A stretch of 64,000 nt of DNA, from the NCBI GenBank assembly GCA_964394405.1, contig CAYMVY010000001.1, positions 494,633 through 558,632 of the forward strand. The letters run 5' to 3'. Origin of the DNA: an uncultured Gammaproteobacteria bacterium. Its GTDB lineage: Bacteria; Patescibacteriota; Patescibacteriia; Magasanikbacterales; UBA922. Under the pieces are notes generated by a model that worked only from the letters and a program-made list of their open reading frames with translations, was not told the origin of the DNA and searched no databases. Position 1 is the stretch's first letter, and each line of letters starts with the position of its first letter. Made by a program: the position numbers and the translations under genes. Below, one piece after another: positions 23,527 to 63,879 of this stretch.

Positions 23527-25605
23527 ATGGAAAGAAAAAATTTCTTCAATTATTCTAGTATCATAAAGATTTTGATTAGCGCTTTGTTCGTCGCACCTCT
23601 AATTCTTTTGAATGATTTTATCTTTCCATTTATTGTACCAAAAATTTTGTTTCTTCGGTCGCTCATCATGATCATATTGGGCGCATACATTTTATTACTT
23701 TTCTCTGATTTCCAGAGATTTAGACCAAAATTTTCTTTCCTCACTATAAGCATTCTCTTATTTTGGCTAAGTTTGGCCATCTCAACATTCGCAGGGGTTG
23801 ATTGGTATCGGAGCTTCTGGGACAATCACGAGCGTATGCTCGGGCTCTTCACCATCACGCACTATGTGATCCTCTATATGGTTGCGTCAGTAGTCATTAC
23901 GACTGAGCGCGATTGGACATTTATCTTTCGGTCAATTTTGATTTTTGGATCACTCGTCATGCTTCTTGGTATGTGGCAAAAATTTGTAGATCCTCAGGCA
24001 CTTTTGAATCGAGGATCAGGGCGTGTGTCCGCAACACTTGGGAACGCTATCTATTATAGTGGATATGGATTATTCCTCCTGTTTCTCGGTGCGATAGAAT
24101 TTTATCGTGAACGGCGGGTGAGTGCGGTATGGAAATATATCGCTCTCGCAACAGCGCTATTTGGGTTCATTGGAATTTTTTTAGGAGGTACTCGAGGTAG
24201 TTTGCTAGGGGGTATGGTAGGTGTTGGTGTACTAGTCACCTGCTATGGATTTTTCTCAAAAACTCGGAATCAGATTACTCGACTGGCGCGATATGCCGCG
24301 ATTGTTGGTGTGGTGGTACTGGGGCTCCTATTCGCATTTCGGACTACCCCGTTTGTATCAGAATTACCTCTACTTGGGTCACTTCTCAATACGTCTTTTT
24401 CTGGTGGTACTGCTGGAACTCGTGTTATGGCATGGGGTATTGCAATTGATGCGTGGAAAGAAAAACCAATCTTTGGTTGGGGGCCTAATAATTTTTACTA
24501 TGCGTTCAATCAATATTACAATCCTCAATTTTTGGAACATGGTTGGAGTGAAACATGGTTCGATAATGCGCATAGTGTAATTTTTAATACACTGACAGTA
24601 CAAGGTGCGTTTGGAATCATCACATATCTCCTCATTTATATCACAGCGGTCAGTATATTATTCATAGGAGTGCGACGTGGACAGATCAATCAACACATTG
24701 GTTTTTTATCAATTGCATTTCTCATTGCGCATTTGGTGGGACTGGTAACAGTGTTCGAGAATCCGACCTCGTATCTCTACTTTTTTGTTTTCTTGGGATT
24801 CGTGGCATACATCGTGAGTCCAGTGAAAGTATTGCATGCGAAAGAATCTACTGAGAGCAATACTTCAAAGAAAGCAGTAATACAATCTGCTCGAACAGGG
24901 CAGTCATCTGTCGGATTATCAGTAATTGTATGGACTTTTATCATACTGTTCATATATATCACTGATATTTCACCTGCTCGCGCGAATAAAGCAGTCGTAG
25001 TGTCTATGCAGAAGTTATATGCGGGTATTGCAGACGAGACTATTTTTGATGAACCATTATCTTTCTCCACACCGCATATCGACGATATACGGAATGATTT
25101 GGCTCGGGTAATTTTTGAAAGACTACCTCAGATGGCGCAAGAAGGTAAGACAGCAGAGATAGGGTTATTATTTGACCGAACAGTACAAGAACTCAAAAAA
25201 AATCAGGCATTGCATCCACTAGATGTTCGCGTACATTTCACTTTATCACAGTATTATAATGTAGGGTATCAGCTGACCAAAAATAGGGACCTCGTGATTC
25301 AGAGTGAAGTCGAGATACGACGAGCGCTGGGACTATCACCCAAGCGTCAACAATTCGAGTATACGCTTGCCTATAATTTGGTAGATCAGGCGAGGCACAA
25401 AGAAGCTGAAGAAATATTAAGAAAATCAATTGAAAACAATCCAAAAATCAGTGAGGGTTGGTGGAGACTAGCGGTCATTTATGGCTATGAGACGAGTACG
25501 AGCTCTGCTCAGGCATTGGTCGATGAGGCTATTGGCAAGGGAGTGGTATTCGATGAGAATGGGAAGAATATTTTGAGACAGCTCGGTATTAAACTCCCCG
25601 AGTGA
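23527..25605 (+). CDS. Wzy_C / O-antigen-ligase-family polytopic membrane protein fused to a C-terminal TPR domain. It is a candidate ligase or O-oligosaccharyltransferase.
   Basis: Ligase-family motifs are present (GGTRGSLLG ... RVMAWGIAIDAWKEKPIFGWGPNNF ... AHSVIFNTLTVQGAFG). C-terminal TPR repeats follow (EEILRKSIENNPKISEGWWRLAVIYG). Confidence 0.65.
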   Translation: MERKNFFNYSSIIKILISALFVAPLILLNDFIFPFIVPKILFLRSLIMIILGAYILLLFSDFQRFRPKFSFLTISILLFWLSLAISTFAGVDWYRSFWDNHERMLGLFTITHYVILYMVASVVITTERDWTFIFRSILIFGSLVMLLGMWQKFVDPQALLNRGSGRVSATLGNAIYYSGYGLFLLFLGAIEFYRERRVSAVWKYIALATALFGFIGIFLGGTRGSLLGGMVGVGVLVTCYGFFSKTRNQITRLARYAAIVGVVVLGLLFAFRTTPFVSELPLLGSLLNTSFSGGTAGTRVMAWGIAIDAWKEKPIFGWGPNNFYYAFNQYYNPQFLEHGWSETWFDNAHSVIFNTLTVQGAFGIITYLLIYITAVSILFIGVRRGQINQHIGFLSIAFLIAHLVGLVTVFENPTSYLYFFVFLGFVAYIVSPVKVLHAKESTESNTSKKAVIQSARTGQSSVGLSVIVWTFIILFIYITDISPARANKAVVVSMQKLYAGIADETIFDEPLSFSTPHIDDIRNDLARVIFERLPQMAQEGKTAEIGLLFDRTVQELKKNQALHPLDVRVHFTLSQYYNVGYQLTKNRDLVIQSEVEIRRALGLSPKRQQFEYTLAYNLVDQARHKEAEEILRKSIENNPKISEGWWRLAVIYGYETSTSSAQALVDEAIGKGVVFDENGKNILRQLGIKLPE

Positions 25606-26761
25606 TGATATCAGTATAGAGTGTTGTTGTTTTCGTAATCATGTGTGAAAGAGAAAATACAGGAGGAAGTTGAGATTTGGCAGTAGTAGTACGAACATCT
25701 CTACTACGAGAGAGTGCGTCAATGATTGCAATGGCCTGTGCATGAGGATTGTTGGGTGGTACCAATTGTATATTTCCTCTGCTCAGGACTGCAAATGAGG
25801 GGATACCTCCTACCTCAGTTGCAATAACAGGGATTCCCATGTGTACGGATTCAAGTAGGGCATAGGGTAATCCTTCTTTGAGCGAGGGGATGAGAAATAG
25901 ATCAAATGCGCGAATCAATGTCTCAGCTTCAGGTATGAATCCGTGGAGAGTGAGTACTGTCTCAAGACGGTACTCTTTTATTTTTGATTCCAACCACTCG
26001 CGCGTGGGGCCGTCACCAATAAGATGCACGTGATAGGGGTGTACTGTTTGTTTGGTTGATACTATGCGGAGTGCCTCTACCAAGGTGTTGAGTCCTTTGG
26101 TTGCAAAAAAATTTGCAATGACGCCCAGATGTATGCGGGTATCACTGCTTTCGATTCCAAGTTTTTTTCGAGCATCAGAAGCCGAGTGGTATGTGTTTTT
26201 TTCTTCAATACCAAGAGGGATAATCGTCATCTTTTTTTCAGGAATATGGAGCATTTTTTCTCCAATAGTTTTTTCTTCTTCTGATAATACGATGAATGCG
26301 TCCTTGCAATAGCGAGTGAGTTGTTCGCTCAATTGATAGAATCCTGCACGCACGCGTGAGAGAGGCTCTCTGAATACCCATCCGTGTACAGTGTAGACAG
26401 TCGAGATCGTAGTTCTCATACTCGCAATCGAGCCGAGTATTCCTGCTTTACTGCTATTGAGATGAACTACCGTAGGCTTTAATTTTTTGTATATTTTTCG
26501 GATTTCATACAGAGCTCTCAGGTCGTCGATAGGTGAGAGAGGGCGTACGAGGTGGGGTATCTGGACGAGTTCAATAGCAGATCCATGCATGGCATTAAAG
26601 GTCTGTATTCGCTCATGTAGACCATGAGGGAGGCAGGCATCGCCACCAATACCAATAACAACCCGGTAGTCCTGGTATAGGTGGGTCGCGAGGTCATAGA
26701 CGTAGCGCTGGGCGCCACCCCATGAATCCTGGGTAATGAGGTAGAGGAGGGTAGGTTTCAT
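25589..26761 (-). CDS. GT4 family glycosyltransferase.
   Basis: The N-terminus reads MKPTLLYLITQDSWGGAQRYVYDL. The C-terminal motif is LIPSLKEGLPYALLESVHMGIPVIATEVGGIP. Its 3' end overlaps the converging gene 23527..25605 by 17 bp. Confidence 0.8.
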   Translation of the reverse strand: MKPTLLYLITQDSWGGAQRYVYDLATHLYQDYRVVIGIGGDACLPHGLHERIQTFNAMHGSAIELVQIPHLVRPLSPIDDLRALYEIRKIYKKLKPTVVHLNSSKAGILGSIASMRTTISTVYTVHGWVFREPLSRVRAGFYQLSEQLTRYCKDAFIVLSEEEKTIGEKMLHIPEKKMTIIPLGIEEKNTYHSASDARKKLGIESSDTRIHLGVIANFFATKGLNTLVEALRIVSTKQTVHPYHVHLIGDGPTREWLESKIKEYRLETVLTLHGFIPEAETLIRAFDLFLIPSLKEGLPYALLESVHMGIPVIATEVGGIPSFAVLSRGNIQLVPPNNPHAQAIAIIDALSRSRDVRTTTAKSQLPPVFSLSHMITKTTTLYTDIITRGV

Positions 26762-26829
26762 AGATTGACTTTTGCTATAAAATATAGCATACTATAAACA
26801 TATATTTTATTCAATATTTGTGCTTAATT

Positions 26830-27774
26830 ATGCGGATTTTGGTAACGGGCGGAGCTGGCTTTATCGGGTCGCATTTGTGTGAAAAATTGCTCGAAACAGG
26901 TAATTCAGTCATCTGCGTTGATAATTTTTTGACAGGCTCACGTGATAATATTGCGCATTTGTTGAAAAAAAAGAACTTTTCTCTCATTGAACATGATATC
27001 ATTGAACCCCTTTTTATTGATGAAAAAATAGATCAGGTCTACAATCTGGCATGTCCGGCAAGTCCGATTCATTATCAGCATAATTCAGTCAGAACCATCA
27101 AAGCAAATACAATTGGCATGATTAATGTATTGGGTATTGCGAGGAATCATGGTGCTCGAATTCTGCAGGCATCAACGTCAGAGGTTTACGGGGATCCAAT
27201 AGTCCACCCGCAGGTAGAGAGTTATCGCGGAAATGTGAATCCAATCGGACCTCGTGCATGCTATGATGAGGGAAAACGATGTGCCGAAACACTGTGTTTT
27301 GAATACCACCGTATGCATGGAATGGAAATCAAGGTAGTGCGTATTTTCAACACCTATGGTCCACGCATGGCATTTGAAGACGGGCGAGTCGTATCCAATT
27401 TTATTATCCAAGCGCTTAGTGGAGAAGAGATTACGATTTATGGAGATGGAATGCAGACAAGAAGTTTTTGCTACGTCGATGATTTGGTCGATGGGCTCAT
27501 ACGAATGATGAATAGTTCGGGAGAATTTTTGGGTCCAGTCAATCTAGGAAATCCCACTGAATTTACGATTGCGGATCTGGCTGCTATTGTTCTCAGACTC
27601 ACCAATTCAGAGAGTACACTCACACACAAAGCATTGCCAGAAGATGATCCGCAACAGCGCCAGCCCGATATCACATTGGCAGAGACAAAACTGGGGTGGA
27701 AACCAACCGTATCACTCGAAGAAGGGTTGCAAAAAACGATAGAAGATTTTAGGAGACGCAAGACTCGTGTATGA
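26830..27774 (+). CDS. uxs: UDP-glucuronate decarboxylase (UDP-xylose synthase), SDR family.
   Basis: Motifs present: [20 protein letters not shown] ... [12 protein letters not shown] ... [20 protein letters not shown] ... [10 protein letters not shown]. Confidence 0.8.
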
Positions 27775-28868
27775 AAAATCGGATACTTATTTTTTCTACC
27801 GCCTATCTGCCTATGGTCGGCGGAGCTGAAGTCGCGGTAAAAGAAATCACTGATCGATTGCCTGATTTTGAGTTTGTGATGATTACGGCAAAATTAAAAA
27901 AAGAATTACCTGATTCAGAAACAATTGGAAATATAGTAGTTCACCGCATAGGGAAGGGGAATGGATGGGATAAATATCGCCTGATTATCAGTGGATGGAA
28001 AAAGGCAAAGGATCTGGGAGTATTTGATAGTGTCTGGTCAATCATGGCGAGCTATGCTGGATTTGCTGCACTCCGCTTCAAAAAGAGAAATCCTCATATT
28101 CCATTTTTATTAACCTTGCAAGAAGGAGATAGTAGGTGGGACATATATAAGCATGTGTGGTGGTGCTGGCCATATTTCAAACAGATTTTCAAACGAGCAG
28201 ACAAAATCCAGGCAATCAGTGGCTATCTGAAGAAATGGGCAGAGTCATTGGGAGCAACCTGCGCAATTGAAGTGGTCCCCAATGGAGTTGCGATAGAAAC
28301 TGCGTTGCCAGAGAACGCTCACGCTGATGTAAAACGAGTAATTACTGTTTCTCGTCTGGTAAAAAAGAATGGATTGGAATATTTGATCCGAGCCATGAAA
28401 ATAGTAAATGAATATCAGCCTCAGCCCATTGTATTGAAAATAATCGGCGATGGTGAATTGAGAAATAAACTGGAAACATTGGGTAAAAAATTGGGAATCG
28501 CGGATCGATTCGTGATTACCGGCAGTGTCTCGTATCGGGAAGTATATGAGCGTCTAGCTCAGGCTGATGTATTCGTGCGCCCTTCGCTATCAGAGGGTCT
28601 GGGAAATGCATTTCTCGAAGCCATGGCTATGGGAGTGCCGGTCATTGGCACTCGAGTAGGTGGTATTCCTGATTTTCTGAAAGATGGAGAGACCGGATGG
28701 TTTTGTGAATCAAAAAATCCAGAGAGTATTGCAGAAAAAGTGATGTATGTTCTCGATAAGAAAAATAAGGCAGTGGTAGAGAAGGTGGTGCACAATGCGA
28801 GGGAATTGGTGCGACGAATCTATTCGTGGGAATTAATTGCTGAACGAATGAAACAATTATTTGTATGA
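27771..28868 (+). CDS. GT4 family glycosyltransferase.
   Basis: The N-terminus reads [21 protein letters not shown]. The C-terminal motif is [34 protein letters not shown] 4-bp ATGA overlap links it to the upstream gene. Confidence 0.8.
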
Positions 28869-29965
28869 AATTATTGATTGCAGCTGACATTTTCCCACCA
28901 GAGTCAGGAGGACCAGCCACCTACGCAGTCACGCTTGCAAATGAGCTCACTAAGCAGGGAGTTGGTGTTAGAATTGTGTCGCTTAATCCAAATTCTGATA
29001 AGAGTAAAGTAAATTGCAAAATATCTTCTGTTTGGTTTAAAAATAAGTTATTACGTTATTTTAACTATTTTGTTCTACTTTTTATTAATGCTATTGGTGT
29101 AAACACTGTCTACGCAATGGGGCCGGTGAATGCAGGTTTACCCGCTTGGATTGTGGCACGTATTTTGAGAAAAAAGTTTGTAGTTAAGGTCGTAGGTGAT
29201 TATGCATGGGAGCAGGGACAAGTGTCTGGAGTGATCAAAGATTCAATTGATGATTTTCAGAAAAAAAATTACGGGGGAAAAATTGGAAGATTGAAAAAGA
29301 TTGAGACTAGTGTAGTAAAAAATGCTGATGCCGTTATAACTCCATCAAAATATTTAAGAAAGATCGTAATAGGGTGGGGGGCGAATGAAAATAGCGTTGA
29401 GGTTATTTATAATGAAGTAGAATTTATAAAGGGTAAGCCAATAGAGCATTCTGGCGAAAACTGGTTGATCTCTGTGGGTAGACTAGTTCCATGGAAAGGC
29501 ATGGATACCTTAATTGAAGTTATTGCTGAAATTTGTAAAGAAGCTCCAGAGTGGAGATTAAAAATCGTTGGTGACGGACCAGAGATGGAAAATTTGAAAA
29601 AGAGAATAATAGATACAAATTTGACACACATTGTTGAGTTAACCGGTAATCTTTCTAAAGAAAAGACATTATCCTATATTGCCTCAGCTGATGTTTTTAT
29701 TTTAAATAGCAGTTATGAAGGGTTATCACATGTTATAGTAGAAGCAATGAACCAGGGGGTCCCAGTATTGGCAAGTGACGTAGGGGGAAATCCTGAAAGC
29801 GTAGCGGATGATAATCTATTTAAATACAACAATAAAGAAGAGATTAAAGAGAAAATTATGCGATTTAGTCATGTGGGTAAGAGAGGGAGCATACAGCATA
29901 ATTTTAAGTTGGGTGGATCTAAGCGCATGATAGACGAGACAAAAAAACTACTAGAGAATCTATGA
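28865..29965 (+). CDS. GT4 family glycosyltransferase.
   Basis: The N-terminus reads [21 protein letters not shown]. The C-terminal motif is ILNSSYEGLSHVIVEAMNQGVPVLASDVGGNPE. Confidence 0.8.
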   Translation: MKLLIAADIFPPESGGPATYAVTLANELTKQGVGVRIVSLNPNSDKSKVNCKISSVWFKNKLLRYFNYFVLLFINAIGVNTVYAMGPVNAGLPAWIVARILRKKFVVKVVGDYAWEQGQVSGVIKDSIDDFQKKNYGGKIGRLKKIETSVVKNADAVITPSKYLRKIVIGWGANENSVEVIYNEVEFIKGKPIEHSGENWLISVGRLVPWKGMDTLIEVIAEICKEAPEWRLKIVGDGPEMENLKKRIIDTNLTHIVELTGNLSKEKTLSYIASADVFILNSSYEGLSHVIVEAMNQGVPVLASDVGGNPESVADDNLFKYNNKEEIKEKIMRFSHVGKRGSIQHNFKLGGSKRMIDETKKLLENL

Positions 29966-30924
29966 AAAAATTAATGATCAGTCTCGATAAAAATATTTTA
30001 CAGAAAGACTCGATTGTTGCTCGGCGCATGATTGATCATGGAAAAGAAAATGAATTATTTATTATTATTCCACACACAGAAAAGGAAAGTTTTGATTTGA
30101 GTGATAAAGTACACGTACAGTCGACTGGTGGGAATAAACTACAGCAATTTTTTCGTGTAAAGAAAATTGGGAAAAAGTTAATTAGACAAAATAAAATTGA
30201 GGAAATTACAACACAGGATCCATTCTTTACTGGTCTCCTCGGCTGGCTATTACAGAAGAAAAGTAATATCAGCCTAGAAGTACAGCTTCATGGTGATTTT
30301 TTGAATGGGTATTATGATAAACAGTGGCTCGCAAAATTTGTGTTGAAGCACGCTTCAAAAATTCGAGTAGTTGGAGAACGTATCAGACATAGCGTGTTAA
30401 AACTTGGAGTGGCAGAAAATAAAATAGTGGTAAAACCAGTACAGAATAATCCAGAATTAATTAAAAATTGGATTTCTGAAGTAAATTTAAAGGATAAATA
30501 TCCAGGATACGACAAAATCTTTTTAATCTTGGGTCGTCTAGAGCCGGTAAAAAATATTTCGTGGTTGATTAATATTTTTAAAGAAGTGGTAAAGCAGAAA
30601 AATTATTTATTACTCATTGTGGGTAGAGGTAGTGAAGAAGAGAAGATAAAAAAACAGATTATCGATGCGGGATTGGTACATAATGTGAAACTCCAAAATT
30701 GGACCGAAGAACCGTATGGGTATCTAAAAACTACAGATTGTGTTCTATTCCCGAGTCTGAGTGAAGGCTATGGGTTGGTTGCGATGGAGGCTCACCTGGT
30801 CGGTACGCCTATTATCATGAACGACGTTGGGGTTGCAAATTATGAACTCAAACCAAGTGAAAAAGTAATTATTCTGCCCACAAACGACCGGGAAGCGTGG
30901 ATTAAGGCAATTCTTTCAATATGA
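29962..30924 (+). CDS. GT1/GT4-like glycosyltransferase (GT-B C-terminal domain).
   Basis: The C-terminal motif is LFPSLSEGYGLVAMEAHLVGTPIIMNDVGV. Confidence 0.65.
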   Translation: MKKLMISLDKNILQKDSIVARRMIDHGKENELFIIIPHTEKESFDLSDKVHVQSTGGNKLQQFFRVKKIGKKLIRQNKIEEITTQDPFFTGLLGWLLQKKSNISLEVQLHGDFLNGYYDKQWLAKFVLKHASKIRVVGERIRHSVLKLGVAENKIVVKPVQNNPELIKNWISEVNLKDKYPGYDKIFLILGRLEPVKNISWLINIFKEVVKQKNYLLLIVGRGSEEEKIKKQIIDAGLVHNVKLQNWTEEPYGYLKTTDCVLFPSLSEGYGLVAMEAHLVGTPIIMNDVGVANYELKPSEKVIILPTNDREAWIKAILSI

Positions 30925-35088: not shown

Positions 35089-35100
35089 AAACGTTTGCAT

Positions 35101-35808
35101 ATGTACCACACTGTTTCTATCGTTATTCCTGTGTATAACGAAGAAAAGACAATTGAAGCAATTGTAAAAAAAGTTTCAGAAGCTTCTGTTTTGGGACTCA
35201 AAAAAGAGATTATACTCGTGAATGATTGTTCAAAAGACAAAAGTAGAGAGGTCCTGGAATCTCTTCAAAAAACTCGTGATCTCCGTGTTTTTCATCAGGA
35301 GATTAATATGGGAAAAGGTGCGGCGCTCCATCGTGGATTTGCAGAGGCAACTGGGGATATTGTAATTATTCAGGACGCTGATCTGGAGTACTCACCAGAC
35401 GAGTATGAGGTACTTTTGCGACCAATCATTGATGGTGATGCAGACGTAGTCTATGGATCACGTTTTCTTGGTAGTAGACCGCATCGAGTGCTATTCTTTT
35501 GGCATTCAGTAGGTAATAAATTCTTGACTCTGTTATCAAACATGTTTACGAATTTGAATCTTACTGATATGGAAACATGTTACAAAGTATTTCGTCGGGA
35601 GTTGTTACAAAAGATTCATCTGAAGGAGAGACGTTTTGGATTTGAACCAGAATTTACTGCAAAAATTGCACATATACCAGACATACGTATATACGAAGTC
35701 GGTATTTCATATCGGGGGCGAAGTTATAAAGAAGGAAAAAAAATAAACTGGAAAGATGGTTTCAGGGCAATTTATTGCATTATAAAGTACGGTATTATAA
35801 AAAGATAG
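35101..35808 (+). CDS. GT2 polyprenyl-phosphate (dolichyl-phosphate-like) hexosyltransferase of the DPM1/ArnC/GtrB type.
   Basis: Motifs present: [18 protein letters not shown] ... [10 protein letters not shown] ... [10 protein letters not shown] ... [14 protein letters not shown] (DxD). Confidence 0.8.
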
Positions 35809-39898: not shown

Positions 39899-39920
39899 AT
39901 GACATACTAGAGTATTTGTT

Positions 39921-40865: not shown

Positions 40866-40878
40866 TTTTTTATTCTGT

Positions 40879-42099: not shown

Positions 42100-42128
42100 T
42101 CTTCAGGTCTTTATCCAGTAGAAAAAGT

Positions 42129-45538: not shown

Positions 45539-45554
45539 TTCTAAAACCGGCAAT

Positions 45555-46697: not shown

Positions 46698-46702
46698 TAT
46701 AT

Positions 46703-50715: not shown

Positions 50716-50717
50716 AT

Positions 50718-52442: not shown

Positions 52443-52455
52443 TGCACTCTCTTTT

Positions 52456-53835: not shown

Positions 53836-53913
53836 GTCTGAGAGTGGTTCATTCAACACTCTTGAAAAAGATACGTTGAGCGTATATACTGGGGTGTATA
53901 TAATTACACACTT

Positions 53914-55131
53914 ATGGGACAAAATATCCTACAAAAAAATCCATACCAAATCGGAGTCGGTACATGCGATATTGGGGAGCGGGCAAAGAAATACGTGAAC
54001 GAAGTGCTTGAAAGCAACCGGCTTACCTACGGGCCTTTTTCAAAAAAATTTGAACAACTATTTGCGGAGGCACATGGATGCAAGTATGCTGTATTTGTGA
54101 ATAGTGGCACGAGCGCGCTTCGAATCGGCCTTGCTGCGTTGAAAGAAAAGTACGGTTGGGATGATCAGGATGAGGTGATTATACCCACGATTACGTTTAT
54201 CTCAGATGTGAATATTGTCGTACATAATAATTTGAAAGTTGTATTCGTTGATGTTGATCCAGAACACTATACGATTGACCCTGCGAAAATTGAAGAAAAG
54301 ATTACTGCTAGAACCCGCGCAATTATTCCGACACATTTATGTGGTCTTGCTTCGGACATGGACCCTATTATTGCTCTGGCAAAAAAACATAATTTGAGAA
54401 TAATCGAGGATGCATGCGAGGCGTCGTTTGCGCGGTATAAGGGGAAAGCAGTGGGGAATTTCAGTGATATTGCATGCTACTCCACCTATCAAGCACACAT
54501 CATTACAACAGGTGTGGGAGGTTTTGCGCTGACCAATGATCCTGATCTTGCGGTACTACTGCGGAGTCTGGCAAATCATGGTAGGGACGGTATTTATATG
54601 CAAATCGATGATGATAAAGGGAAAAGCGCGGACGAACTTCGTGAGGTGGTGAATCGACGTTTTTCATTTATTCGCCCAGGATACAGTTTTCGGGCAACCG
54701 AGCTCGAAGCTGCGTTGGGTGTTGCAGAATTGGAAGAAGGAGTTGAGAAAGGTATTGAGATTCGTCAAAAAAATGTACAGTTACTCTTGGAGACCCTACG
54801 TCCGTTTAGTGATGTATTGCAGCTTCCTGTGTGGCCTCTATCGAGTTACCATGTATTCATGATGTTTCCAATTGTGGTCAAAGCAGGTAGTGGGGTCAAT
54901 CGAGACGAATTGGTGAATTTCCTTGAGCAGTATAATGTTGAAACAAGAAGGTTGCTTCCAATTCTTGATCAGCCCTTTATTCTCAAGAAATTTGGTGATC
55001 TATCTTCCCAATTTCCAGTAGGAGATCACCTGAATAAAAATTCTTTCTATATCGGTTGCCATCCTTCAATTACTAGAGAAAATATTGAGTATATTGGAAA
55101 AGTATTTTCACTCTATCTTCATAAGTCCTAA
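53914..55131 (+). CDS. DegT/DnrJ/EryC1/StrS family PLP-dependent sugar aminotransferase.
   Basis: Family motifs present (FVNSGTSALRIGLAAL ... HLCGLASDMDPI ... EDACEASFARYKGKAVGNFSD). Confidence 0.8.
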   Translation: MGQNILQKNPYQIGVGTCDIGERAKKYVNEVLESNRLTYGPFSKKFEQLFAEAHGCKYAVFVNSGTSALRIGLAALKEKYGWDDQDEVIIPTITFISDVNIVVHNNLKVVFVDVDPEHYTIDPAKIEEKITARTRAIIPTHLCGLASDMDPIIALAKKHNLRIIEDACEASFARYKGKAVGNFSDIACYSTYQAHIITTGVGGFALTNDPDLAVLLRSLANHGRDGIYMQIDDDKGKSADELREVVNRRFSFIRPGYSFRATELEAALGVAELEEGVEKGIEIRQKNVQLLLETLRPFSDVLQLPVWPLSSYHVFMMFPIVVKAGSGVNRDELVNFLEQYNVETRRLLPILDQPFILKKFGDLSSQFPVGDHLNKNSFYIGCHPSITRENIEYIGKVFSLYLHKS

Positions 55132-55137
55132 TCTGGT

Positions 55138-55884
55138 ATGCAGTCGGGGATTGTAATACCCTCATATAACGAAGCCGAAAATATCGGCATGCTTATAAAA
55201 GAAATTGTAACCGTACTGCCGGGTGCATTGATTGTAGTTGTTGATGATTCTCCAAATGAAGAAACTGTTAATGCAGTCAAATCTCTCGGGTTGGAGCACG
55301 TACACATTATCCACCGGACACATAAGGATGGGCGTGGTTCTGCAGTGATTGTAGGACTTCAGTATCTTTTGGACAAAAAAACAGACATTCTCATAGAAAT
55401 GGATGCTGATTTTTCCCATCCACCAAAACAGTTGTTAGAATTAATCAGGACATTCGAAGAGAAGAAATTAGCAATGTTAATTGCAAGTCGGTATCTCAAA
55501 GGAAGTAGAATTGATAATTGGTCGATGATGCGGAGAATTTTTTCACGATGCGCAAATTTTGTTGCGCGTCGGCTATTACAAATTCCGATTGCGGATTATA
55601 CCAATGGATACCGAGTATACTCCCGTGAAGCTGCAGAGCTCATTACGGCGAATTGTGGAAAGATGGGGAAAGGATTTATTCCACTCAGTGAAATTGTGAC
55701 ACAATTGTACTACCGGGGTTTTCCAATTGGAGAGATCCCTACTCATTTTGTCAATCGGGCACGTGGACAGAGTTCACTTAATTTTGTAGAAATCAAAAAT
55801 GCAGCACTAGGAATTATGAAGATATACGGACTTAGGAAAAAATTACAAAAAGAGTTCCCGAATGTGGAAACTAGGATTTCTTAA
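55138..55884 (+). CDS. GT2 polyprenyl-phosphate sugar synthase (DPM1/ArnC-like).
   Basis: Motifs present: GIVIPSYNEAENIGMLI ... VVVDDSPNEET ... GRGSAVIVG ... DADFSHPP. Confidence 0.8.
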   Translation: MQSGIVIPSYNEAENIGMLIKEIVTVLPGALIVVVDDSPNEETVNAVKSLGLEHVHIIHRTHKDGRGSAVIVGLQYLLDKKTDILIEMDADFSHPPKQLLELIRTFEEKKLAMLIASRYLKGSRIDNWSMMRRIFSRCANFVARRLLQIPIADYTNGYRVYSREAAELITANCGKMGKGFIPLSEIVTQLYYRGFPIGEIPTHFVNRARGQSSLNFVEIKNAALGIMKIYGLRKKLQKEFPNVETRIS

Positions 55885-57376
55885 ACGTATCCATGAGTAG
55901 TGCACAAAAAGACCGGAGACCTGGGTCTTTTTTTAATTTTTCAATATCATTTTCATACCAGAGATTCGAGAAATCGAAAGGCACTGATTCCTTGAGAACT
56001 GCGGCAGTAAAATGAATCATTGCCTCTTCATCGTATGAGAAATGAGTGAGTTGCTTTTGGATAATACTGGGTAAATCTTCCATAGCCCGAACTCGCGTGA
56101 CAAATGGGAGTGTATTGTAAAAAACATCACCGAAAGTAATCACTGGTTTTCCATAGATGCCGGCCTCCCATCCGCCGGTTCCAGTAATTGCGGTTATTAA
56201 TTTTGCTCGCTTAATAAATTCAAAACTACTGACACGATGATTGACTAGGCGAACATTTGGAATTTTCAGTAGTTCCTTGTAGTACCAATTTTGTCGCTTG
56301 CTTATCATCGCAGGGTGCTCTTTGACATAGAGTTTGTAGTGCAAAGGTAGAGACTCTGCGATATATCGAATAAGGGTGAGCTGATCGAAGTAGTAAGGAG
56401 AAAGGAGAAGGATTGCTAGCTCAGGCTCATAGTGAAGTGGAAAAAATACAAAATCTTCATTCCAAGTTAATGGTTTGTAGAAACGATCGAGACCCCTGAT
56501 AGATCGCACATACTGTTTGATTTTATACCAGATAAATCGTAGAGGGTTGAGATTGGTCATGCCATACTCGAATAAATGTCGACTTTTGACATAATTATTG
56601 AGCAGTGTCCAGATATATCGGATTGATTGTAGAACGTGCTTGGGATTCAAGATTCGAATCGGCTTTGGTAGCTGACCTAATGCTACATTCATATATTGCA
56701 ATTGCAAAGATCCGGTTTTTCTGAAGTGTTCGATTAATTTTTTTGCCTCGACATGATAAGAAGTCTCTATTTTTTCTTTTTTGAATATTTCAAATGTGCG
56801 AGATACTTCAGTTAGAGTTTTATAATCTTTGGAAATACACATGCGATTTGACACACGTGGGAAGTCGATATTAAAAACAGGAATTCCCATTTTTTTCGCA
56901 ACATTGTACAAAATTAGGTGCCCAAGAGCGCCAATAGCAAAAAATAAGATAAAATCGGGACGATGCTCAGAAAGCATTTTTTCAATCGCTCGTGCGCGCA
57001 CCTGAAATATTCGGAGAAGTTCTTCGTGTGAATAGAGAGGGTCGATTACTGCAGTGGTTTCTTCTTTTGGGCCGATAGACATCATGAGTTTTCTGTCGGT
57101 ATAGAGGTAGTGCCATAGTTCAGAAGGTCCATAGTTTTTTTCAAAATGTGTGATGTACTCAATATCAACTGTCTCATGTTGAAATTGGTTATGAAGTTCA
57201 TGATCGACAAGTACTGGGTTGTACACAATATCTGTTTGTGTATGTATAAATTTTTCGGCACCAAGCGAAAAGACATATGCAGAAAACTCCGTGACTCCAT
57301 AATCTTCTTTCAAGACATTCGCAATCGCATGTCCGATTTTACTGTACTGGTTTTGTAATACAATACAAGCTCTCAT
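55871..57376 (-). CDS. GT-B-like polysaccharide biosynthesis enzyme, either KpsC/KpsS capsule-synthesis type (PF05159) or TagF-like glycerophosphotransferase.
   Basis: The C-terminal motif FIKRAKLITAITGTGGWEAGIYGKPVITFGDVFY resembles the KpsC/KpsS / TagF nucleotide-binding region. Confidence 0.45.
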   Translation of the reverse strand: MRACIVLQNQYSKIGHAIANVLKEDYGVTEFSAYVFSLGAEKFIHTQTDIVYNPVLVDHELHNQFQHETVDIEYITHFEKNYGPSELWHYLYTDRKLMMSIGPKEETTAVIDPLYSHEELLRIFQVRARAIEKMLSEHRPDFILFFAIGALGHLILYNVAKKMGIPVFNIDFPRVSNRMCISKDYKTLTEVSRTFEIFKKEKIETSYHVEAKKLIEHFRKTGSLQLQYMNVALGQLPKPIRILNPKHVLQSIRYIWTLLNNYVKSRHLFEYGMTNLNPLRFIWYKIKQYVRSIRGLDRFYKPLTWNEDFVFFPLHYEPELAILLLSPYYFDQLTLIRYIAESLPLHYKLYVKEHPAMISKRQNWYYKELLKIPNVRLVNHRVSSFEFIKRAKLITAITGTGGWEAGIYGKPVITFGDVFYNTLPFVTRVRAMEDLPSIIQKQLTHFSYDEEAMIHFTAAVLKESVPFDFSNLWYENDIEKLKKDPGLRSFCALLMDTFKKS

Positions 57377-58869
57377 AGTCGGGGGAGTGTTTTTAAAATG
57401 ACATCAATAGTCATATAGGGTCCTCGGTGGAATTTTTTTCCTACGATGTATATACCAAGACCGTATAGTAGGAAATAAAGTATTGTGAGGACGATTAGTA
57501 TGTAGAGGGGTAGCTGCATGAGAGTGTCTTTAAAAATCGCAAGGGGGGTCATGAGTCCTCCTGCAAGCAGGAGGGGGAAACCAATGCGGATAAAAATATT
57601 CCAATAAGTGATGCGAGTCAATGACTGTATATAGTGAAGGGTAAAGAAGAAGGTGGGCAAGAAGCCGAGTAACAGTGCGAGTGGAGCTCCATTAATTCCG
57701 TATCGAGGGGTGATATAGAGCAATAATATGAGGGAAATAATTATCTTTACGATATCAAGTTTTACTTTTTTGTCAGGGTATCCGATTCCACTTAATAATT
57801 TTGCACAAATATCAGTCATGTAACTCAATGTGAAATAAAGGAGTAGTATACGCAAGGCAAAAGTAATCGGAAGCCAAGGTTCTCCAAGCAGGACCAAGAC
57901 CAGTTTTCCTCCAGCAATTTGTATAAATAGGATAATAGGTAGGGTGACGACAAATAGGAGGTCTAAGCTTTTTTTAAATCCATCGGCAATTTTTTCTGGA
58001 GAATCTTTGATGCGTGCAAATGCGGGGAATGCAATCATTGAAATTATTGAGGAGATAAAACCGGGACCAATTGATGCAAGATTTTTCGCCTTACTATATA
58101 AACCAACCGCCGAGGTATTGGTTGAACGTGCAATAATTGAACTTTCGGCAAATGAATATATTTGGTCTCCCAACACCTGCCCAGTTACCCATTTACCGTA
58201 TCCGATAAGTTCTTTTAAAATTTTAAATTGAAAAGTAATGCGTGGTCGATAGGGGTGGAGCACGTAGCTGGCAATCATTTCGGTGAGATAGAGTGCTAGA
58301 TTACCGATAATGAGAGCGAGGTATGAACGCAGGAAATATGCTGAAATAACAGTCACAATTGAATAGGCGATTGCCCGAGCTGTATTGCGGATAAATATTT
58401 TTTTGAAATCAAGATCTTTGGTAAACCAAATTTCTCCGATATTGGTGAATTGTCGGATAAGAATGAAAACTCCACCAAGACGGATAACCCATGTGTATTC
58501 TTCTACATGGTAGAATGTTGCAATGAATGGTCCGGCAATAAAGACCAGAAGACAGATTACAATGCCGCGTAACACATTAACGGTCCAGATTGCATTAAGA
58601 TATTTTTCGACGCTTCCACCTTTTTGTATTGCCGCGGTTGCAAGCCCGTGTTCACTGGTAGTTTGGAGGAACCGTGGCACGAGCAAAACAATACTTGCAA
58701 TACCAAATTGTTCTGGAGTGAGAATTCGGGCAAGAATAAAAAAGGGCAGGATTGCGACTGCTTTTTGGATGATATAGTCTATCATGAGCCATTTGCCTGC
58801 TCGGATAGACTTCTGAAGCACGCCCTCAGGCGCTGAATTTTGTGTAGAATTAGAGGTATTCATTACCAT
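57373..58869 (-). CDS. wzx: Wzx-type oligosaccharide/polysaccharide flippase (MOP superfamily).
   Basis: It is about 498 aa with 12-14 transmembrane helices. The N-terminal region (IQKAVAILPFFILARILTPEQFGIASI) is typical of Polysacc_synt flippases. Confidence 0.7.
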   Translation of the reverse strand: MVMNTSNSTQNSAPEGVLQKSIRAGKWLMIDYIIQKAVAILPFFILARILTPEQFGIASIVLLVPRFLQTTSEHGLATAAIQKGGSVEKYLNAIWTVNVLRGIVICLLVFIAGPFIATFYHVEEYTWVIRLGGVFILIRQFTNIGEIWFTKDLDFKKIFIRNTARAIAYSIVTVISAYFLRSYLALIIGNLALYLTEMIASYVLHPYRPRITFQFKILKELIGYGKWVTGQVLGDQIYSFAESSIIARSTNTSAVGLYSKAKNLASIGPGFISSIISMIAFPAFARIKDSPEKIADGFKKSLDLLFVVTLPIILFIQIAGGKLVLVLLGEPWLPITFALRILLLYFTLSYMTDICAKLLSGIGYPDKKVKLDIVKIIISLILLLYITPRYGINGAPLALLLGFLPTFFFTLHYIQSLTRITYWNIFIRIGFPLLLAGGLMTPLAIFKDTLMQLPLYILIVLTILYFLLYGLGIYIVGKKFHRGPYMTIDVILKTLPRL

Positions 58870-59011
58870 GTAAGAATGTATAATTCTCTTCTAGAATAAC
58901 AAAAAAAACACTCGAAGTCAATGTGATTTATAACGAACGCGTATATATTGACTATACCTGAGTGTTGGTGGTATTATCCTAGGGTAAAAATCATTCAATC
59001 CATGACAATCT

Positions 59012-62650: not shown

Positions 62651-63879
62651 GTACTATCTGTATTGTCGGTCTTGGGTATATTGGTTTTCCAACTGCGCTC
62701 CTTCTCGCTCGCGCAGGACACCAAGTCTTTGGGTATGATGTCAATGCTGAAAAAATTGCAAGATTAGAAAAGGGGGTTATGCCATTTGAAGAAACAGGAC
62801 TTCATGAATTATGGGTAGAAGCACACCATAATTTTTTTCCAAAAACTGAAATGGTGAGCGCGGAAATATATGTGATTGCAGTGCCGACACCAGTCACTAC
62901 TGATAAAAAGTGCGATTTGTCATATGTGCAAAAAGCAACAGAAGCTGTTGCAGGTGTCATACAAAAAGGATCACTCGTCATACTTGAATCAACTGTATCG
63001 CCTGGGACTACAGAAGAATTGGTCGGTCATATAATTGAACAAAAAACAGGGTTTGTTAAAGGAAAAGATTTTTATCTCGGGTATGTCTCAGAAAAAGCTA
63101 TTCCAGGTAACACACTTCATGAAATGATTCACAATGACCGCATTATCGGTGGGTACAACCCAGAAAGTACAGAAAAAACCAGAAGAATATATATGAGTTT
63201 TGTGGAAGGGGTGATACACGTCACCGATTGCAAGACCGCAGAGACAGTGAAATTGGTAGAAAATGCATACCGTGATGTGAATATTGCATTTGCAAATGAG
63301 CTTGCAAAAATGAGTGCTTCGCTTGGTATGAATGTGTGGGAAATTATTCGGCTTGCAAATAAACATCCCCGAGTGAATGTACATGCGCCAGGACCTGGAG
63401 TGGGTGGGCATTGTATCGCACTCGATCCGTGGTTTCTGGTAGAACACGACCCAAATCAGCCAACTTTGATACCGCATGCCCGCGAGGTCAACGACCATAT
63501 GCCTGAATATGTAGTTGCTGCAGTGAAGAAGCTGGCGGAAAAGCATGGAACTAAAAAGATTGGTATACTAGGAGTGGCGTATAAGAAGAATGTTGATGAT
63601 GCGAGAGAGACTCCTGCAATACCTATTATAGTAGGTTTGGAAAAAATGGGGTTCGAGGTATGTGCGCATGATCCATGGGTGAAAGATTTTTCTTTCCCTC
63701 TGGTTTCATTTGAAACACTCATGAATAATGTTGAAGCGCTGGTCATAATCACTGATCATGATAGTTTTAAGAATATGGAGTTTAACAATCAAGCGAAGTG
63801 GTTGTTGGACACCAGAGGGCTATATGAAAATAATAAGGATATTGGCGTAGAATATTATTTACTCGGAAGAGAAATCTAA
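62647..63879 (+). CDS. wecC: UDP-N-acetyl-D-mannosamine / UDP-sugar 6-dehydrogenase (nucleotide-sugar dehydrogenase family).
   Basis: Motifs present: ICIVGLGYIGFPTALLLA and a catalytic Cys region GPGVGGHCIALDP. It is adjacent to wecB. Confidence 0.75.
   Translation: MSTICIVGLGYIGFPTALLLARAGHQVFGYDVNAEKIARLEKGVMPFEETGLHELWVEAHHNFFPKTEMVSAEIYVIAVPTPVTTDKKCDLSYVQKATEAVAGVIQKGSLVILESTVSPGTTEELVGHIIEQKTGFVKGKDFYLGYVSEKAIPGNTLHEMIHNDRIIGGYNPESTEKTRRIYMSFVEGVIHVTDCKTAETVKLVENAYRDVNIAFANELAKMSASLGMNVWEIIRLANKHPRVNVHAPGPGVGGHCIALDPWFLVEHDPNQPTLIPHAREVNDHMPEYVVAAVKKLAEKHGTKKIGILGVAYKKNVDDARETPAIPIIVGLEKMGFEVCAHDPWVKDFSFPLVSFETLMNNVEALVIITDHDSFKNMEFNNQAKWLLDTRGLYENNKDIGVEYYLLGREI

Follow-up and report, generated by a model that had tools for sequence, protein, structure and literature searches.

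A surface-glycan locus with several predicted transmembrane glycosylation modules

Gene content and packing of the island

The window, i.e. the whole stretch of 64,000 nucleotides that was analysed, holds a surface-glycan island at 23527-63879, most likely that of a CPR/Patescibacteria bacterium with a very small genome. The family or fold of every component, topology-consistent motifs, the coupling of synthases with GT-C transferases and the conservation in related Patescibacteria loci were computed here, with sequence comparison and predicted structure as the basis of all assignments. ORF calls and Pfam searches returned the gene content and positions described in an earlier note. The content reaches 63879 as described there, but no boundary lies at this position and the island runs on for at least 10 kb past the window. 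The coding density of the island is 98.6%, and 24 of the 27 same-strand gaps are 30 bp or shorter. The long operons proposed earlier fit the operon-like tight packing, largely on one strand, but the statement that most junctions are coupled by ATGA overlaps is refuted, with such overlaps at 8 of the 27 same-strand junctions. Promoter-like sites occur in some of the intergenic gaps.

At 23527..25605 (+) a Wzy_C membrane protein of the polymerase/ligase/O-oligosaccharyltransferase type is encoded (PF04932, 56 bits), in which about 11-12 hydrophobic segments are followed by an extracytoplasmic helical C-terminal tail. The protein had been described as Wzy_C-TPR; the Wzy_C domain stands, but the TPR match of the tail is below threshold (E 2.6e-3, 18 bits), and a clear TPR protein is encoded by a separate gene at 22786-23502. 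The additional Wzy_C-domain gene reported outside the island is present on the minus strand (6425..7876; PF04932, 72 bits). The Wzx/MOP-family flippase was likewise recovered at 57373..58869 (-) with 224 bits to PF13440 (Polysacc_synt_3) and 176 bits, below cut-off, to NF007773. It is adjoined, in related loci too, by a gene for a weakly Capsule_synth-like protein (55871..57376, -; PF05159, 31.5 bits). Instead of the nine GT4/GT-B genes claimed earlier the island holds seven, and a total of nine is reached only with the upstream genes 7931 and 13837. These seven comprise one gene on the minus strand (25589..26761; PF13692/PF00534/PF13439), three assigned by Pfam and arranged in tandem with ATGA overlaps on the plus strand (27771..30924, i.e. 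27771-28868, 28865-29965 and 29962-30924), two of GT-B/GT4 type (32837-34060 and 34057-35088, +; PF13692/PF00534) and one at 45432..46697 (+; Pfam), for which the gene caller starts at 45555 (380-aa gene call in L001).

The nucleotide-sugar genes, all on the plus strand, fall between and behind the transferase genes. An NDP-sugar epimerase/dehydratase of the SDR type (26818..27774; PF16363/PF01370) scores under every NCBIfam equivalog cut-off. GDP-mannose 4,6-dehydratase Gmd (31842-32828; TIGR01472, 510 bits, cut-off 415) and its partner SDR (30921-31835, below cut-offs) form a predicted GDP-6-deoxyhexose branch. RmlB, the dTDP-glucose 4,6-dehydratase, is encoded at 44486..45538 (TIGR01181, 397 bits, cut-off 365), while the second module described below includes an SDR (39921-40865; Pfam), a DegT/RfbH-like PLP enzyme (40879-42099; RfbH 355 bits, below the 423-bit cut-off) and RmlC (42129-42689; TIGR01221, 201 bits, above cut-off). 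Two AsnB-type glutamine-dependent amidotransferases were found, at 37174..39021 (PF00733, 298 bits; TIGR01536, 475 bits), with amidation of a sugar carboxylate as its probable role, and at 46703..48583 (PF00733, 347 bits; TIGR03108, 595 bits, below cut-off). A DegT-family sugar aminotransferase follows at 53914..55131 (PF01041, 303 bits). Towards the end of the island, UDP-GlcNAc 2-epimerase WecB (61538-62650; TIGR00236, 364 bits, above cut-off) and a WecC-like NDP-sugar dehydrogenase (62647-63879), which passes TIGR03026 with 422 bits and reaches 369 of the 459 bits required by the WecC model, form a putative UDP-ManNAc(A) branch. The two genes before them, likewise on the plus strand, encode a 268-aa protein (59012-59818) and a protein of 565 aa that ends in a SAM methyltransferase domain (59825-61522; PF08241), and are kept as a pair in related loci L002 and L009; the former protein and the N-terminal 399 aa of the latter gave no family match.

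Outside the island, the gene at 18874..22623 (+) encodes a secreted 1249-aa protein. Its earlier description as S-layer-like is consistent with the signal peptide and the Thr/Ala/Val/Ser/Gly-rich, Cys-poor composition (Thr+Ser 21.6%), features on which the label depends; no family match was obtained. It is a candidate surface-layer protein and possibly a glycosylation acceptor.

Predicted GT-C transferases and GT2 synthases

Five predicted GT-C transferases are encoded in the window, where the earlier note had counted at least four and a possible fifth at 50718. Against a gathering score of 26.1 bits for PMT_2 (PF13231), the module 1 enzyme (35824..37170, +) scores 58.5 bits and the enzyme at 52414..53835 (+; 459-aa gene call, start probably at 52456) 54.6 bits. 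PMT_2 matches below threshold were obtained for the module 2 enzyme (42707..44413, +; E 1.5e-3) and for the GT-C domain of the module 3 protein (48580..50715, +; E 3.9e-3), a fusion with a DPM1-like GT2. For both, full-length homologues with 35-46% identity contain PF13231 and have GT39/ArnT-like names; those of 42707 share 40-44% identity, with PF13231 and the label GT39. The fifth protein (50718..52442, +) has no Pfam or NCBIfam match and is, by fold and profile-profile comparison, a predicted GT-C transferase of a family without a curated model.

The extracytoplasmic acidic motif sought for each candidate was located directly after TM1 in all five proteins and is invariant or conserved within each family: VDAxxYD in 35824 and GDDDSSGY in 52414, both kept in orthologues, and D42-E43 in 42707, invariant across 38 sequences. 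In the 48580 protein a cytoplasmic GT2 (aa 1-~235) is joined through one TM helix to a GT-C domain whose first outer loop carries WFDEG and whose conserved acidic residues include D269/E270; since exactly one TM helix lies between the GT2 domain and the WFDEG loop, this loop is predicted to be extracellular. The possibility that the membrane proteins are transporters is contradicted by these motifs together with the PMT_2 matches and the PMT_2/GT39-labelled homologues.

All four proposed GT2 genes pass PF00535, namely the module 1 DPM1/ArnC-like enzyme (35095..35808, +; 237 aa, 130 bits, ATG at 35101), the module 2 DPM1/PpgS-like enzyme (39113..39898, +; 261 aa), the N-terminal domain of 48580 and the module 4 DPM1-like enzyme (55138..55884, +; 248 aa), of which the 52414 GT-C is the likely partner. 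Dolichol-P-mannose synthase 5mlz is the best solved homologue of all four, at 1e-20 for 35095 and 2.6e-24 for 55138, each followed by ArnC and GtrB, and at 4e-13 for 39113, where a chondroitin synthase takes second place and GtrB gives no match. The ArnC structure matches all four (rank 2 for three), and GtrB matches the same three. Among NCBIfam models the top matches are AglJ and ArnC for 35095, PpgS, AglJ and the Dol-P-hexose transferase for 39113, PpgS for 55138, and PgfS also within the set. All these scores are far below the curated equivalog cut-offs and thus permit no substrate assignment, which counts against the reading preferred below. The DAD-type motif is present in the GT2 set, including 35095, QxxRW is absent from all four proteins, and three (35095 and 39113 among them) have no TM helix. 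An assignment as ordinary processive synthases is contradicted by the likeness to 5mlz, ArnC and GtrB, the missing QxxRW and the three proteins without a TM helix; the similarity to polyprenyl-phosphate sugar synthases is supported for all four as a predicted activity. Further points against are the replacement of DxD by NID in the fusion's GT2 domain and the very lack of TM helices in three proteins, which would thus require a membrane partner or interfacial binding, comparable to what has been proposed for GacI, a synthase without TM helices that acts with GacJ (PMC8035078).

Synthase/GT-C coupling in related loci

The pairing of GT2 with GT-C genes was independently backed by fusions and adjacency in related loci, in which such pairs recur. 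Synthase and GT-C are a single polypeptide in 48580 and two neighbouring genes in L007, L014 and L018; at least 21 cluster representatives share the fusion, and elsewhere its two parts are separate. Members of the 50718 family elsewhere include GT2 fusions (four clear, one weak) and four fusions to a GtrA flippase domain. The orthologues of 35095 and 35824 stay together in L017 and L018, a 52414-like GT-C adjoins a 283-aa GT2 in L010 and L017, and in L004 the orthologues of the 52414 GT-C and the 53914 DegT are fused in frame. L002, L003 and L004 each keep the block 45432-55884 (GT4, AsnB, fusion, 50718, PMT_2, DegT, GT2) together, and the 46703 AsnB-type gene belongs to this conserved core, of which L017 has a shorter form (GT4-AsnB-fusion-50718).

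Proposed pathway and alternative readings

Both assignments, GT-C and non-processive GT2, hold and support the multi-module extracytoplasmic glycosylation suggested earlier. The locus is probably a Wzx/Wzy-type glycan locus with several transmembrane glycosylation modules like GtrABC, ArnC/ArnT or SccN/SccM. One complex cell-surface glycoconjugate would be assembled in two compartments. In the cytoplasm, Gmd and its SDR would yield GDP-6-deoxyhexose, RmlB, RmlC, SDR and DegT enzyme a dTDP-6-deoxy (amino/deoxy) hexose, and WecB with the WecC-like dehydrogenase UDP-ManNAc(A), with further tailoring by the two AsnB-type amidotransferases and the second DegT. The seven GT4 enzymes would assemble a polyprenyl-linked oligosaccharide for export by Wzx, and the Wzy_C-type proteins would polymerise it or transfer it to the final acceptor. 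In parallel, each of the four GT2 enzymes would load one sugar onto polyprenyl monophosphate at the inner membrane face, and once these sugars are flipped, the five GT-C enzymes would attach them at the outer face, either to the exported glycan or to a surface protein. Lipid carrier, sugars, acceptor, step order and flippase are what we infer from the gene set; the same mechanism is established for GtrABC, ArnC/ArnT, CsbB/YfhO, GacI/GacL and SccN/M with SccP/Q (PMC8035078, PMC11754754, PMC11127046). Counting against it, GT2 and GT-C stand at 4:5 and not one to one in the window, neither the window nor the 10 kb beyond it showed an initiating phosphoglycosyltransferase (WecA/WbaP type), and no GtrA- or ArnE/F-type flippase gene lies in the window, where Wzx is the sole flippase candidate.

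That two or three independent glycan cassettes lie side by side and serve different surface molecules is possible, if doubtful. The block 45432-55884 is conserved as a unit, different cassettes precede the shorter core in L017 (35095/35824-like) and the full block in L004 (RmlB/RmlC/DegT/42707), paralogues share just 21-35% identity, and two Wzy_C genes and the promoter-like sites fit this arrangement. The tight, mostly single-strand packing, the single Wzx gene and the missing initiating transferase for even one pathway speak against it. It is compatible with the main mechanism and alters the number of products only.

It is unlikely that the GT-C enzymes glycosylate proteins directly, the 18874-22623 protein and other surface proteins included, like actinobacterial Pmt O-mannosyltransferases and PgfS/PgfM1 of Streptococcus mutans, while GT4, Wzx and Wzy_C make a separate glycan. 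In favour of it, PgfS ranks among the top GT2 matches, the Thr/Ser-rich secreted protein is encoded 900 bp upstream of the island, after an ECF sigma factor gene, and Wzy_C proteins can act as O-oligosaccharyltransferases. However, no family could be assigned to this secreted protein and no MIR domain was detected. The GT-C genes lie within sugar-tailoring/GT4 operons and not beside its gene, and the GT2/GT-C/GT4/AsnB block is kept in the related loci examined, all of which stop short of the island's upstream region. PMT_2 is moreover a broad family and covers GT-C enzymes of both the ArnT-like and the polysaccharide-modifying kind (PMC8035078, Table 2).

A role of the GT-C enzymes as builders, extending the glycan stepwise from polyprenyl-phosphate sugars after the GT4 phase and flipping, as in the ER-lumenal ALG3/9/12/6/8/10 steps and mycobacterial Aft/Emb/PimE, appears improbable. 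The eukaryotic lipid-linked oligosaccharide pathway combines GT4 enzymes, a flippase, a DPM1-like GT2 and several GT-C enzymes, a set mirrored here, and with a sixth GT-C gene beyond the window there are more GT-C enzymes than the four to five synthases. GT-C fold likeness does not separate builders from decorators, seven GT4 enzymes with Wzx and Wzy_C suffice for a repeat-unit polymer, and the cassettes are reshuffled among relatives, a pattern more in keeping with optional decorations than with an obligatory assembly line. A reading of the small GT2 proteins as ordinary cytoplasmic enzymes that add sugars to a PP-linked repeat unit, with GT-C donors from elsewhere or other GT-C roles, is hardly credible: their sub-cut-off scores, three TM-less members and the chondroitin synthase match of 39113 are outweighed by DPMS as best solved homologue (whole catalytic domain aligned for three), fusion of GT2 to two different GT-C families, recurrent GT2/GT-C adjacency and known TM-less synthases, PpgS-like and GacI with GacJ (PMC8035078).

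The mechanism favoured here, decoration at the outer face by synthase/GT-C modules, is already known, and the unusual part is the copy number of the modules, not a new kind of system: one sugar-coat cluster combines four predicted lipid-sugar loaders with five predicted outer-face membrane transferases.

Gene content and packing of the locus

The surface-glycan gene cluster at 23527-63879, whose genes are named here by their start coordinates, comprises 32 genes, 28 of them on the plus strand, at a coding density of 98.6%, and 24 of its 27 same-strand junctions do not exceed 30 bp. According to Pfam, the cluster encodes a Wzy_C protein (23527), seven GT4/GT-B glycosyltransferases (25589 on the minus strand, 27771, 28865, 29962, 32837, 34057 and 45432), five SDR epimerase/dehydratases, two DegT PLP enzymes, one RmlC, two AsnB-type amidotransferases, four GT2 proteins (35095, 39113, the N-terminal domain of 48580, and 55138), a Wzx flippase (57373, minus strand), WecB with a nucleotide-sugar dehydrogenase, a methyltransferase-containing protein and a weak Capsule_synth match (55871, minus strand). 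The membrane proteins are 35824, 42707, the C-terminal part of 48580, 50718 and 52414. Four sugar enzymes passed the NCBIfam equivalog cut-offs, namely Gmd (31842), RmlB (44486), RmlC (42129) and WecB (61538), and the dehydrogenase 62647 scored above the generic NDP-sugar dehydrogenase model, with UDP-ManNAc dehydrogenase as the nearest model. One Wzx and two Wzy_C proteins are present in the window (Pfam); neither an initiating phosphoglycosyltransferase nor Wzz was found in the 64-kb window or in the 10 kb beyond it that are covered by L010, the locus that continues the window. A promoter and terminator scan of the second half of the cluster gave background levels and was informative only at the divergent gap 58869-59012 and at the gap before 53914.

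The earlier note had counted at least nine GT4 genes inside the cluster, which holds seven, and ATGA overlaps at most junctions, the latter being present at 8 of 27; it had also ascribed a TPR part to the Wzy_C protein 23527, for which the TPR match fell below the threshold. The rest of its gene content stood apart from minor corrections, and the end that it had placed at 63879 is passed by the cluster. At 3159-13157 of L010, past the WecC-like gene, there follow genes for an SDR protein, a GT4 enzyme, a methyltransferase, a PMT_2 GT-C protein (472 aa) and a GT2 protein (283 aa) with two C-terminal TM helices; next are two ORFs for small hydrophobic proteins of 71 and 82 aa, two adjacent gene calls that together cover a carbamoyltransferase, and genes for an SGNH/AlgX-like protein and a further SDR protein. 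With this continuation counted in, the locus is more than 50 kb long, and its GT-C and GT2 genes number six and five, respectively. Essentially no family could be assigned to three products that are kept in related loci: the 501-aa weakly Capsule_synth-like protein (55871-57376, minus strand), whose gene always adjoins the Wzx gene, a 268-aa protein (59012-59818, plus strand) and the first 399 aa of the methyltransferase protein (59825-61022, plus strand).

Upstream of the cluster are located a TPR protein, two further GT4 genes, the second Wzy_C gene and a gene for a 1249-aa secreted protein rich in Thr, Ala, Val and Ser (18874-22623). The signal peptide and composition of the latter fit its previous S-layer label; it matched no Pfam or NCBIfam family and is not identifiable as an S-layer protein. 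Directly upstream of it, an ECF sigma factor gene (16727-17302, plus strand) is followed by a gene for a 391-aa membrane-anchored, coiled-coil, Thr/Ser-rich protein without a family (17324-18499, plus strand), and the two may form a sigma/anti-sigma pair controlling the surface protein. The three 391-aa ORFs of the window (2438-3613, 13837-15012 and 17324-18499) were rejected as IS copies, being an unrelated Cys/Asp-rich protein, GT4 enzyme and Thr/Ser-rich membrane protein, respectively. The stretch that separates the main cluster from the Wzy_C and GT4 genes upstream of it encodes a GHL15 glycoside-hydrolase-like protein carrying FG-GAP repeats (9166-11205, plus strand) and a DUF11 surface-repeat protein (11718-13580, plus strand). 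Among the surface-protein and glycan genes there is also an isolated gene coding for a '23S rRNA intervening sequence protein' (11312-11680, plus strand; PF05635, 75 bits), and no rRNA gene is located nearby. Secreted Cys/Asp/Gly-rich repeat proteins with Dicty_CTDC, thrombospondin type-3 and MopE-like matches are encoded at 14-1768, 2438-3613 and 3954-6008 (all plus strand); two of these three genes lie in stretches of 64% GC in a genome of about 40% GC, a jump that follows the share of Cys, Asp and Gly codons.

Over the rest of the window, from about 6 kb onwards, the GC content stays uniform at about 40%, and no tRNA or integrase gene was found in the window. Nothing therefore suggests recent horizontal acquisition, and the term 'island' applies only in the sense of a gene cluster. 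The relatives of the marker families belong to MAGs of Patescibacteria/CPR, namely Ca. Magasanikbacteria, Giovannonibacteria, Harrisonbacteria, Wildermuthbacteria and 'Patescibacteria group', and from them the window is itself inferred to come from this group. Its sequence is identical to Logan contigs of run SRR12404947, and an NCBI contig of 596,879 bp carries its proteins. Three MAGs titled 'uncultured Gammaproteobacteria bacterium' (L004, L005 and L009) share a gene block with Ca. Magasanikbacteria MAGs; their proteins are about 41-66% identical to those of the window, and their taxonomic labels may be wrong.

Predicted synthases and transferases

The four GT2 proteins are predicted to be GT-A/GT2 polyprenyl-phosphate monosaccharide synthases, in agreement with the earlier note. 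For all four the best solved homologue in the PDB was the Pyrococcus dolichol-phosphate mannose synthase 5mlz (E values of 1e-20 for 35095, 4e-13 for 39113, 1e-9 for 48580 and 3e-24 for 55138), after which ArnC matched all four and GtrB three of them. The proteins are 237-261 aa in size, with a 235-aa domain in the fusion protein 48580, and each carries a DAD-type motif (DAD in 35095 and 55138, HAD in 39113, NID in 48580). The top NCBIfam models were AglJ, PpgS, ArnC, PgfS and a haloarchaeal dolichyl-phosphate hexose transferase; every score was well short of its equivalog cut-off, and a substrate can therefore not be assigned to any of the GT2 enzymes. Processive polysaccharide synthases of the cellulose, chitin, hyaluronan or PNAG type, to which only the N-terminal approximately 100 residues gave matches (PgaC and NodC, NCBIfam), were rejected because 5mlz is the best homologue and because of the NCBIfam ranking, the size, the DAD-type motif and the absence of QxxRW from all four proteins; a multi-TM channel domain is lacking as well.

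A TM helix is lacking in three of the four GT2 enzymes: none is convincing among the 237-261-aa proteins, and the hydrophobic segment of 55138 (residues 15-37) sits within the catalytic domain. This leaves the membrane recruitment of the three enzymes unexplained. TM-less synthases are known, namely PpgS-like enzymes and GacI, which requires GacJ (PMC8035078).

The five membrane proteins were identified, as the earlier note had claimed, as putative GT-C transferases and not transporters by PMT_2 scores, homologues, fold and acidic motifs. Above the Pfam gathering threshold for PMT_2 (PF13231) were 35824 (58.5 bits) and 52414 (54.6 bits); 42707 (19.2 bits, E 1.5e-3) and the C-terminal domain of 48580 (17.8 bits) remained below it and are joined to PMT_2 and to CAZy GT39-GT83-like proteins through homologues, those of 42707 being full-length proteins of 40-44% identity that carry PF13231 and are named GT39. 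The protein 50718 has no PMT_2 match in Pfam and joins only at the profile-profile level, and hence was not filed under PMT_2; as judged from its predicted structure, 50718-52442 has a GT-C membrane fold, with AftA as the best structural match. When the GT-C candidates were compared with PDB sequences directly, by sequence or by profile, nothing was returned, and fold comparison alone succeeded. Identity with eukaryote-type PMT (GT39), which is marked by MIR domains in lumenal loop 5 and by protein Ser/Thr acceptors, was rejected, as none of the five proteins has a MIR domain in Pfam.

In all five proteins the N-terminus is positively charged and leads into a single TM helix, behind which lies an acidic motif; the predicted topology places this motif in the first extracytoplasmic loop. 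The earlier note had proposed to look for an extracytoplasmic DD/DE motif. The motifs are VVDAQAYD (VDAxxYD) after TM1 in 35824, GDEPSF in 42707 (D42-E43 invariant in 38 sequences), WFDEG in 48580 (D269 invariant), E51...E60..D63 in 50718 (E51 and E60 invariant) and GDDDSSGY after TM1 in 52414, and they are invariant or conserved across family alignments and orthologues. In 48580, a single TM helix (about residues 236-257) lies between the cytoplasmic GT2 domain and the WFDEG loop, and this predicted topology is the one expected for synthesis inside and transfer outside.

Coupling of the modules and the 50718 family

The repeated pairing of a DPM1-like GT2 enzyme with a GT-C transferase, which was central to the earlier note, was borne out by gene adjacency, synteny, the fusion protein 48580 and fusions within the 50718 family. 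The genes 35095 and 35824 are separated by 15 bp, and their orthologues are adjacent in the related loci L017 and L018. GT2/GT-C pairs recur in L007, L010, L012, L014, L017, L018 and L019, with a 283-aa GT2 protein adjoining a 52414-like GT-C protein in L010 and L017, and with a GT2 gene directly 5' of a 50718 homologue in L006, L012 and L013. The core GT4-AsnB-fusion-50718-PMT_2-DegT-GT2 is kept in L002, L003 and L004 at 37-88% identity. Scans with 50718-family patterns gave only 7 loci in genomes and 6 in metagenomes, and the contexts were extended via contigs encoding homologues.

The protein 48580 is a single polypeptide in at least 21 cluster representatives, and its counterpart consists of two adjacent genes in L007, L014 and L018. 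At 7748-9955 of L007, a TGA stop splits the 48580-type fusion and the next ATG follows two codons on, giving a 253-aa GT2 and a 480-aa GT-C protein. In L004, an 879-aa ORF (11733-14372) joins a 52414-type GT-C protein in frame with a 53914-type DegT aminotransferase, and therefore links sugar tailoring to the 52414 module; this ORF could be a genuine GT-C::aminotransferase fusion, or it may have arisen through the loss of a stop codon in that MAG. Since the paralogous modules share only 21-35% identity, they are old and presumably different in specificity.

The family of 50718, for which a curated model is lacking, comprises 818 cluster representatives at a threshold of E<=1e-30, rising to 1884 at <=1e-10. 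Its longer members have N-terminal extensions, comprising a PF00535 GT2 domain in P0259, P0286, P0314 and P0332 (weakly in P0313) or a GtrA_DPMS_TM flippase domain in P0249, P0261, P0327 and P0297. This Rosetta-stone evidence, as read from domain architectures, links the GT-C family to both other parts of three-component systems, and therefore argues that 50718 uses a lipid-monophosphate monosaccharide donor and not an oligosaccharide. One further member is fused N-terminally to a GT4 domain (P0271).

Proposed mechanism, known systems and significance

In the proposed mechanism, an oligosaccharide would be assembled by the GT4 enzymes on a polyprenyl carrier in the cytoplasm, exported by Wzx, and polymerised or ligated by the Wzy_C proteins. 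The four GT2 enzymes would produce polyprenyl-phosphate monosaccharides from tailored nucleotide sugars encoded alongside, as in the cassette 39113-SDR-DegT-RmlC-42707-RmlB, which shares its part list with an arn operon but lies on a dTDP-6-deoxyhexose branch. These lipid-linked sugars would be flipped, the product of the Wzx gene being a candidate flippase by analogy with GacK (PMC8035078), and the five GT-C enzymes would transfer them to either the exported glycan or a protein of the cell surface. The GT-C enzymes characterised to date are inverting at the anomeric centre (PMC11754754). No GtrA- or SMR-like small membrane ORF and no ArnEF were found in the 64-kb window, nor a GtrA or ArnEF gene in the 10 kb beyond. 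The absence of a GtrA/ArnEF-type flippase gene and of an initiating phosphoglycosyltransferase weakens the mechanism and does not contradict it. Computational evidence establishes what the parts are, which fold they are predicted to have, that they are coupled and that they are conserved, and the interpretation is supported within the limits of sequence and predicted structure.

Alternatively, a lipid-linked core made by the GT4 enzymes might be flipped and then built further outside by five to six GT-C enzymes with dedicated synthases, in the manner of an assembly line and following the logic of the eukaryotic ER or of mycobacterial arabinan; 48580, which would make, hand over and use its own lipid-linked donor, might then dispense with a separate flippase. 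This is considered improbable. If true, extracytoplasmic construction of a glycan, and not its decoration, would be a major investment of a Patescibacterium with a reduced genome, the locus taking up more than 50 kb of the 597-kb contig.

For the preferred mechanism, the addition of lipid-linked monosaccharides to an exported glycan or protein, precedents are at hand. Multi-component transmembrane glycosylation is well described for the three-component systems GtrA/GtrB/Gtr(type), CsbB/GtcA/YfhO and GtlA/GtlB and for CsdAB/CD/EF of L. lactis; in these, a GT-A/GT2 enzyme charges polyprenyl phosphate with one sugar at the inner face, a multi-pass GT-C enzyme whose first outer loop bears an acidic motif transfers the sugar outside, and the genes are usually adjacent (PMC8035078; PMC11127046). 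The GT2 and GT-C identities, the acidic motifs and the adjacency are all matched here. Such systems usually have one GT-C per locus, whereas five are found here and a sixth just beyond the window; moreover, a GtrA-type flippase gene is missing from the window, three synthases are without C-terminal TM helices and one synthase is fused to its GT-C enzyme.

Side chains of streptococcal rhamnopolysaccharides are added by GacI/GacJ/GacK/GacL in GAS and by SccN-SccM and SccP-SccQ in S. mutans, whose SCC cluster with these two pairs is the closest experimentally studied multi-module locus among the systems compared (PMC11754754). B. subtilis has three GT-A/GT-C pairs (PMC8035078), and for L. lactis three distinct glycosylation pathways are reported (PMC8035078; reference 7 of PMC13390465). 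Rhamnose-pathway genes, a polymer backbone of cytoplasmic origin (predicted for the present locus) and GT2/GT-C pairs inside the locus are common to the streptococcal systems and the present one. Further parallels are the Wzx-type GacK, which is the proposed flippase of the lipid-linked monosaccharide, and a GT-A enzyme with a separate membrane partner. In streptococci, the backbone is exported by an ABC transporter and the donors are Glc or GlcNAc; here, in contrast, Wzx/Wzy is found, additional genes of the DegT, AsnB and SDR types point to modified amino or amido sugars, the modules are two to three times as many, and the lineage (Patescibacteria) is unrelated.

The arn (pmr) operon consists of ArnB (DegT), ArnC (GT2), ArnA (SDR/formyltransferase), ArnD, ArnT (GT-C) and ArnE/F. 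The cassette 39113-44486 resembles it in having genes of four of these classes (GT2 synthase, SDR, DegT PLP enzyme, GT-C) together in one operon, and ArnC and ArnT were among the best structural matches. An Arn pathway was nevertheless rejected: only the generic DegT/GT2/SDR/GT-C classes are shared, no formyltransferase or deformylase domain was found by Pfam, ArnE/F is missing, and the NCBIfam scores reached 30-73 bits against a cut-off of 529 for ArnC models and 119-174 bits against 631 for ArnB models. The sugar branch is dTDP-6-deoxyhexose (RmlB/RmlC) and not UDP-GlcA to Ara4N, and in a Patescibacterium one would not expect lipid A as the acceptor.

Mycobacterial PpgS (Rv3631, with Rv3779) is a small polyprenyl-phosphate aminosugar synthase that works with a GT-C enzyme. 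Among the NCBIfam models, PpgS ranked first for both 39113 and 55138, and the structural match of 50718 to AftA is a further resemblance; the PpgS scores are 75-85 bits against a cut-off of 370, and an arabinogalactan context is missing here. The Ppm1/Pmt system differs in that Ppm1 carries a membrane domain other than a GT-C. Gene clusters for S-layer glycans (slg) in Bacillaceae, as well as loci for general O-glycosylation, have also been described (PMC2943079, PMC6120980). The slg clusters are similar in their location directly downstream of a large secreted surface-protein gene, in rml-type genes and many glycosyltransferases, and in a Wzy_C-domain protein that could act as O-oligosaccharyltransferase; here, by contrast, the surface protein could not be recognised as an S-layer protein, and RmlA and RmlD were not identified in the locus. 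We know of no slg cluster that carries arrays of GT2/GT-C modules.

The module number per locus, the synthase::GT-C fusion, the TM-less synthases, the GT-C family without a curated model and the host lineage go beyond the known examples. A literature search for GT-C/PMT/ArnT arrays in CPR/Patescibacteria or for GT2::GT-C fusions found none, within an incomplete coverage that is not proof of novelty, and the PF00535+PF13231 architecture already occurs in public proteins according to precomputed Pfam annotation. Because the mechanism itself is textbook, the value lies in the annotation, the new family and an entry into the surface biology of Patescibacteria, and not in a new principle. Two leads emerge, namely a large GT-C family without a curated model that is tied to lipid-monophosphate donors by GT2 and GtrA fusions, and a natural synthase::GT-C fusion that could serve as a single-polypeptide model for the coupling of inner-face and outer-face steps. 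The genomes of Patescibacteria/CPR are very small and the cells are believed to be attached to hosts, and for this reason their surface chemistry, of which to our knowledge almost nothing has been described, probably matters for attachment and phage recognition. At least one lineage, with Ca. Magasanikbacteria as its nearest named relatives, devotes a very large modular gene set to what is predicted to be extracytoplasmic sugar addition.
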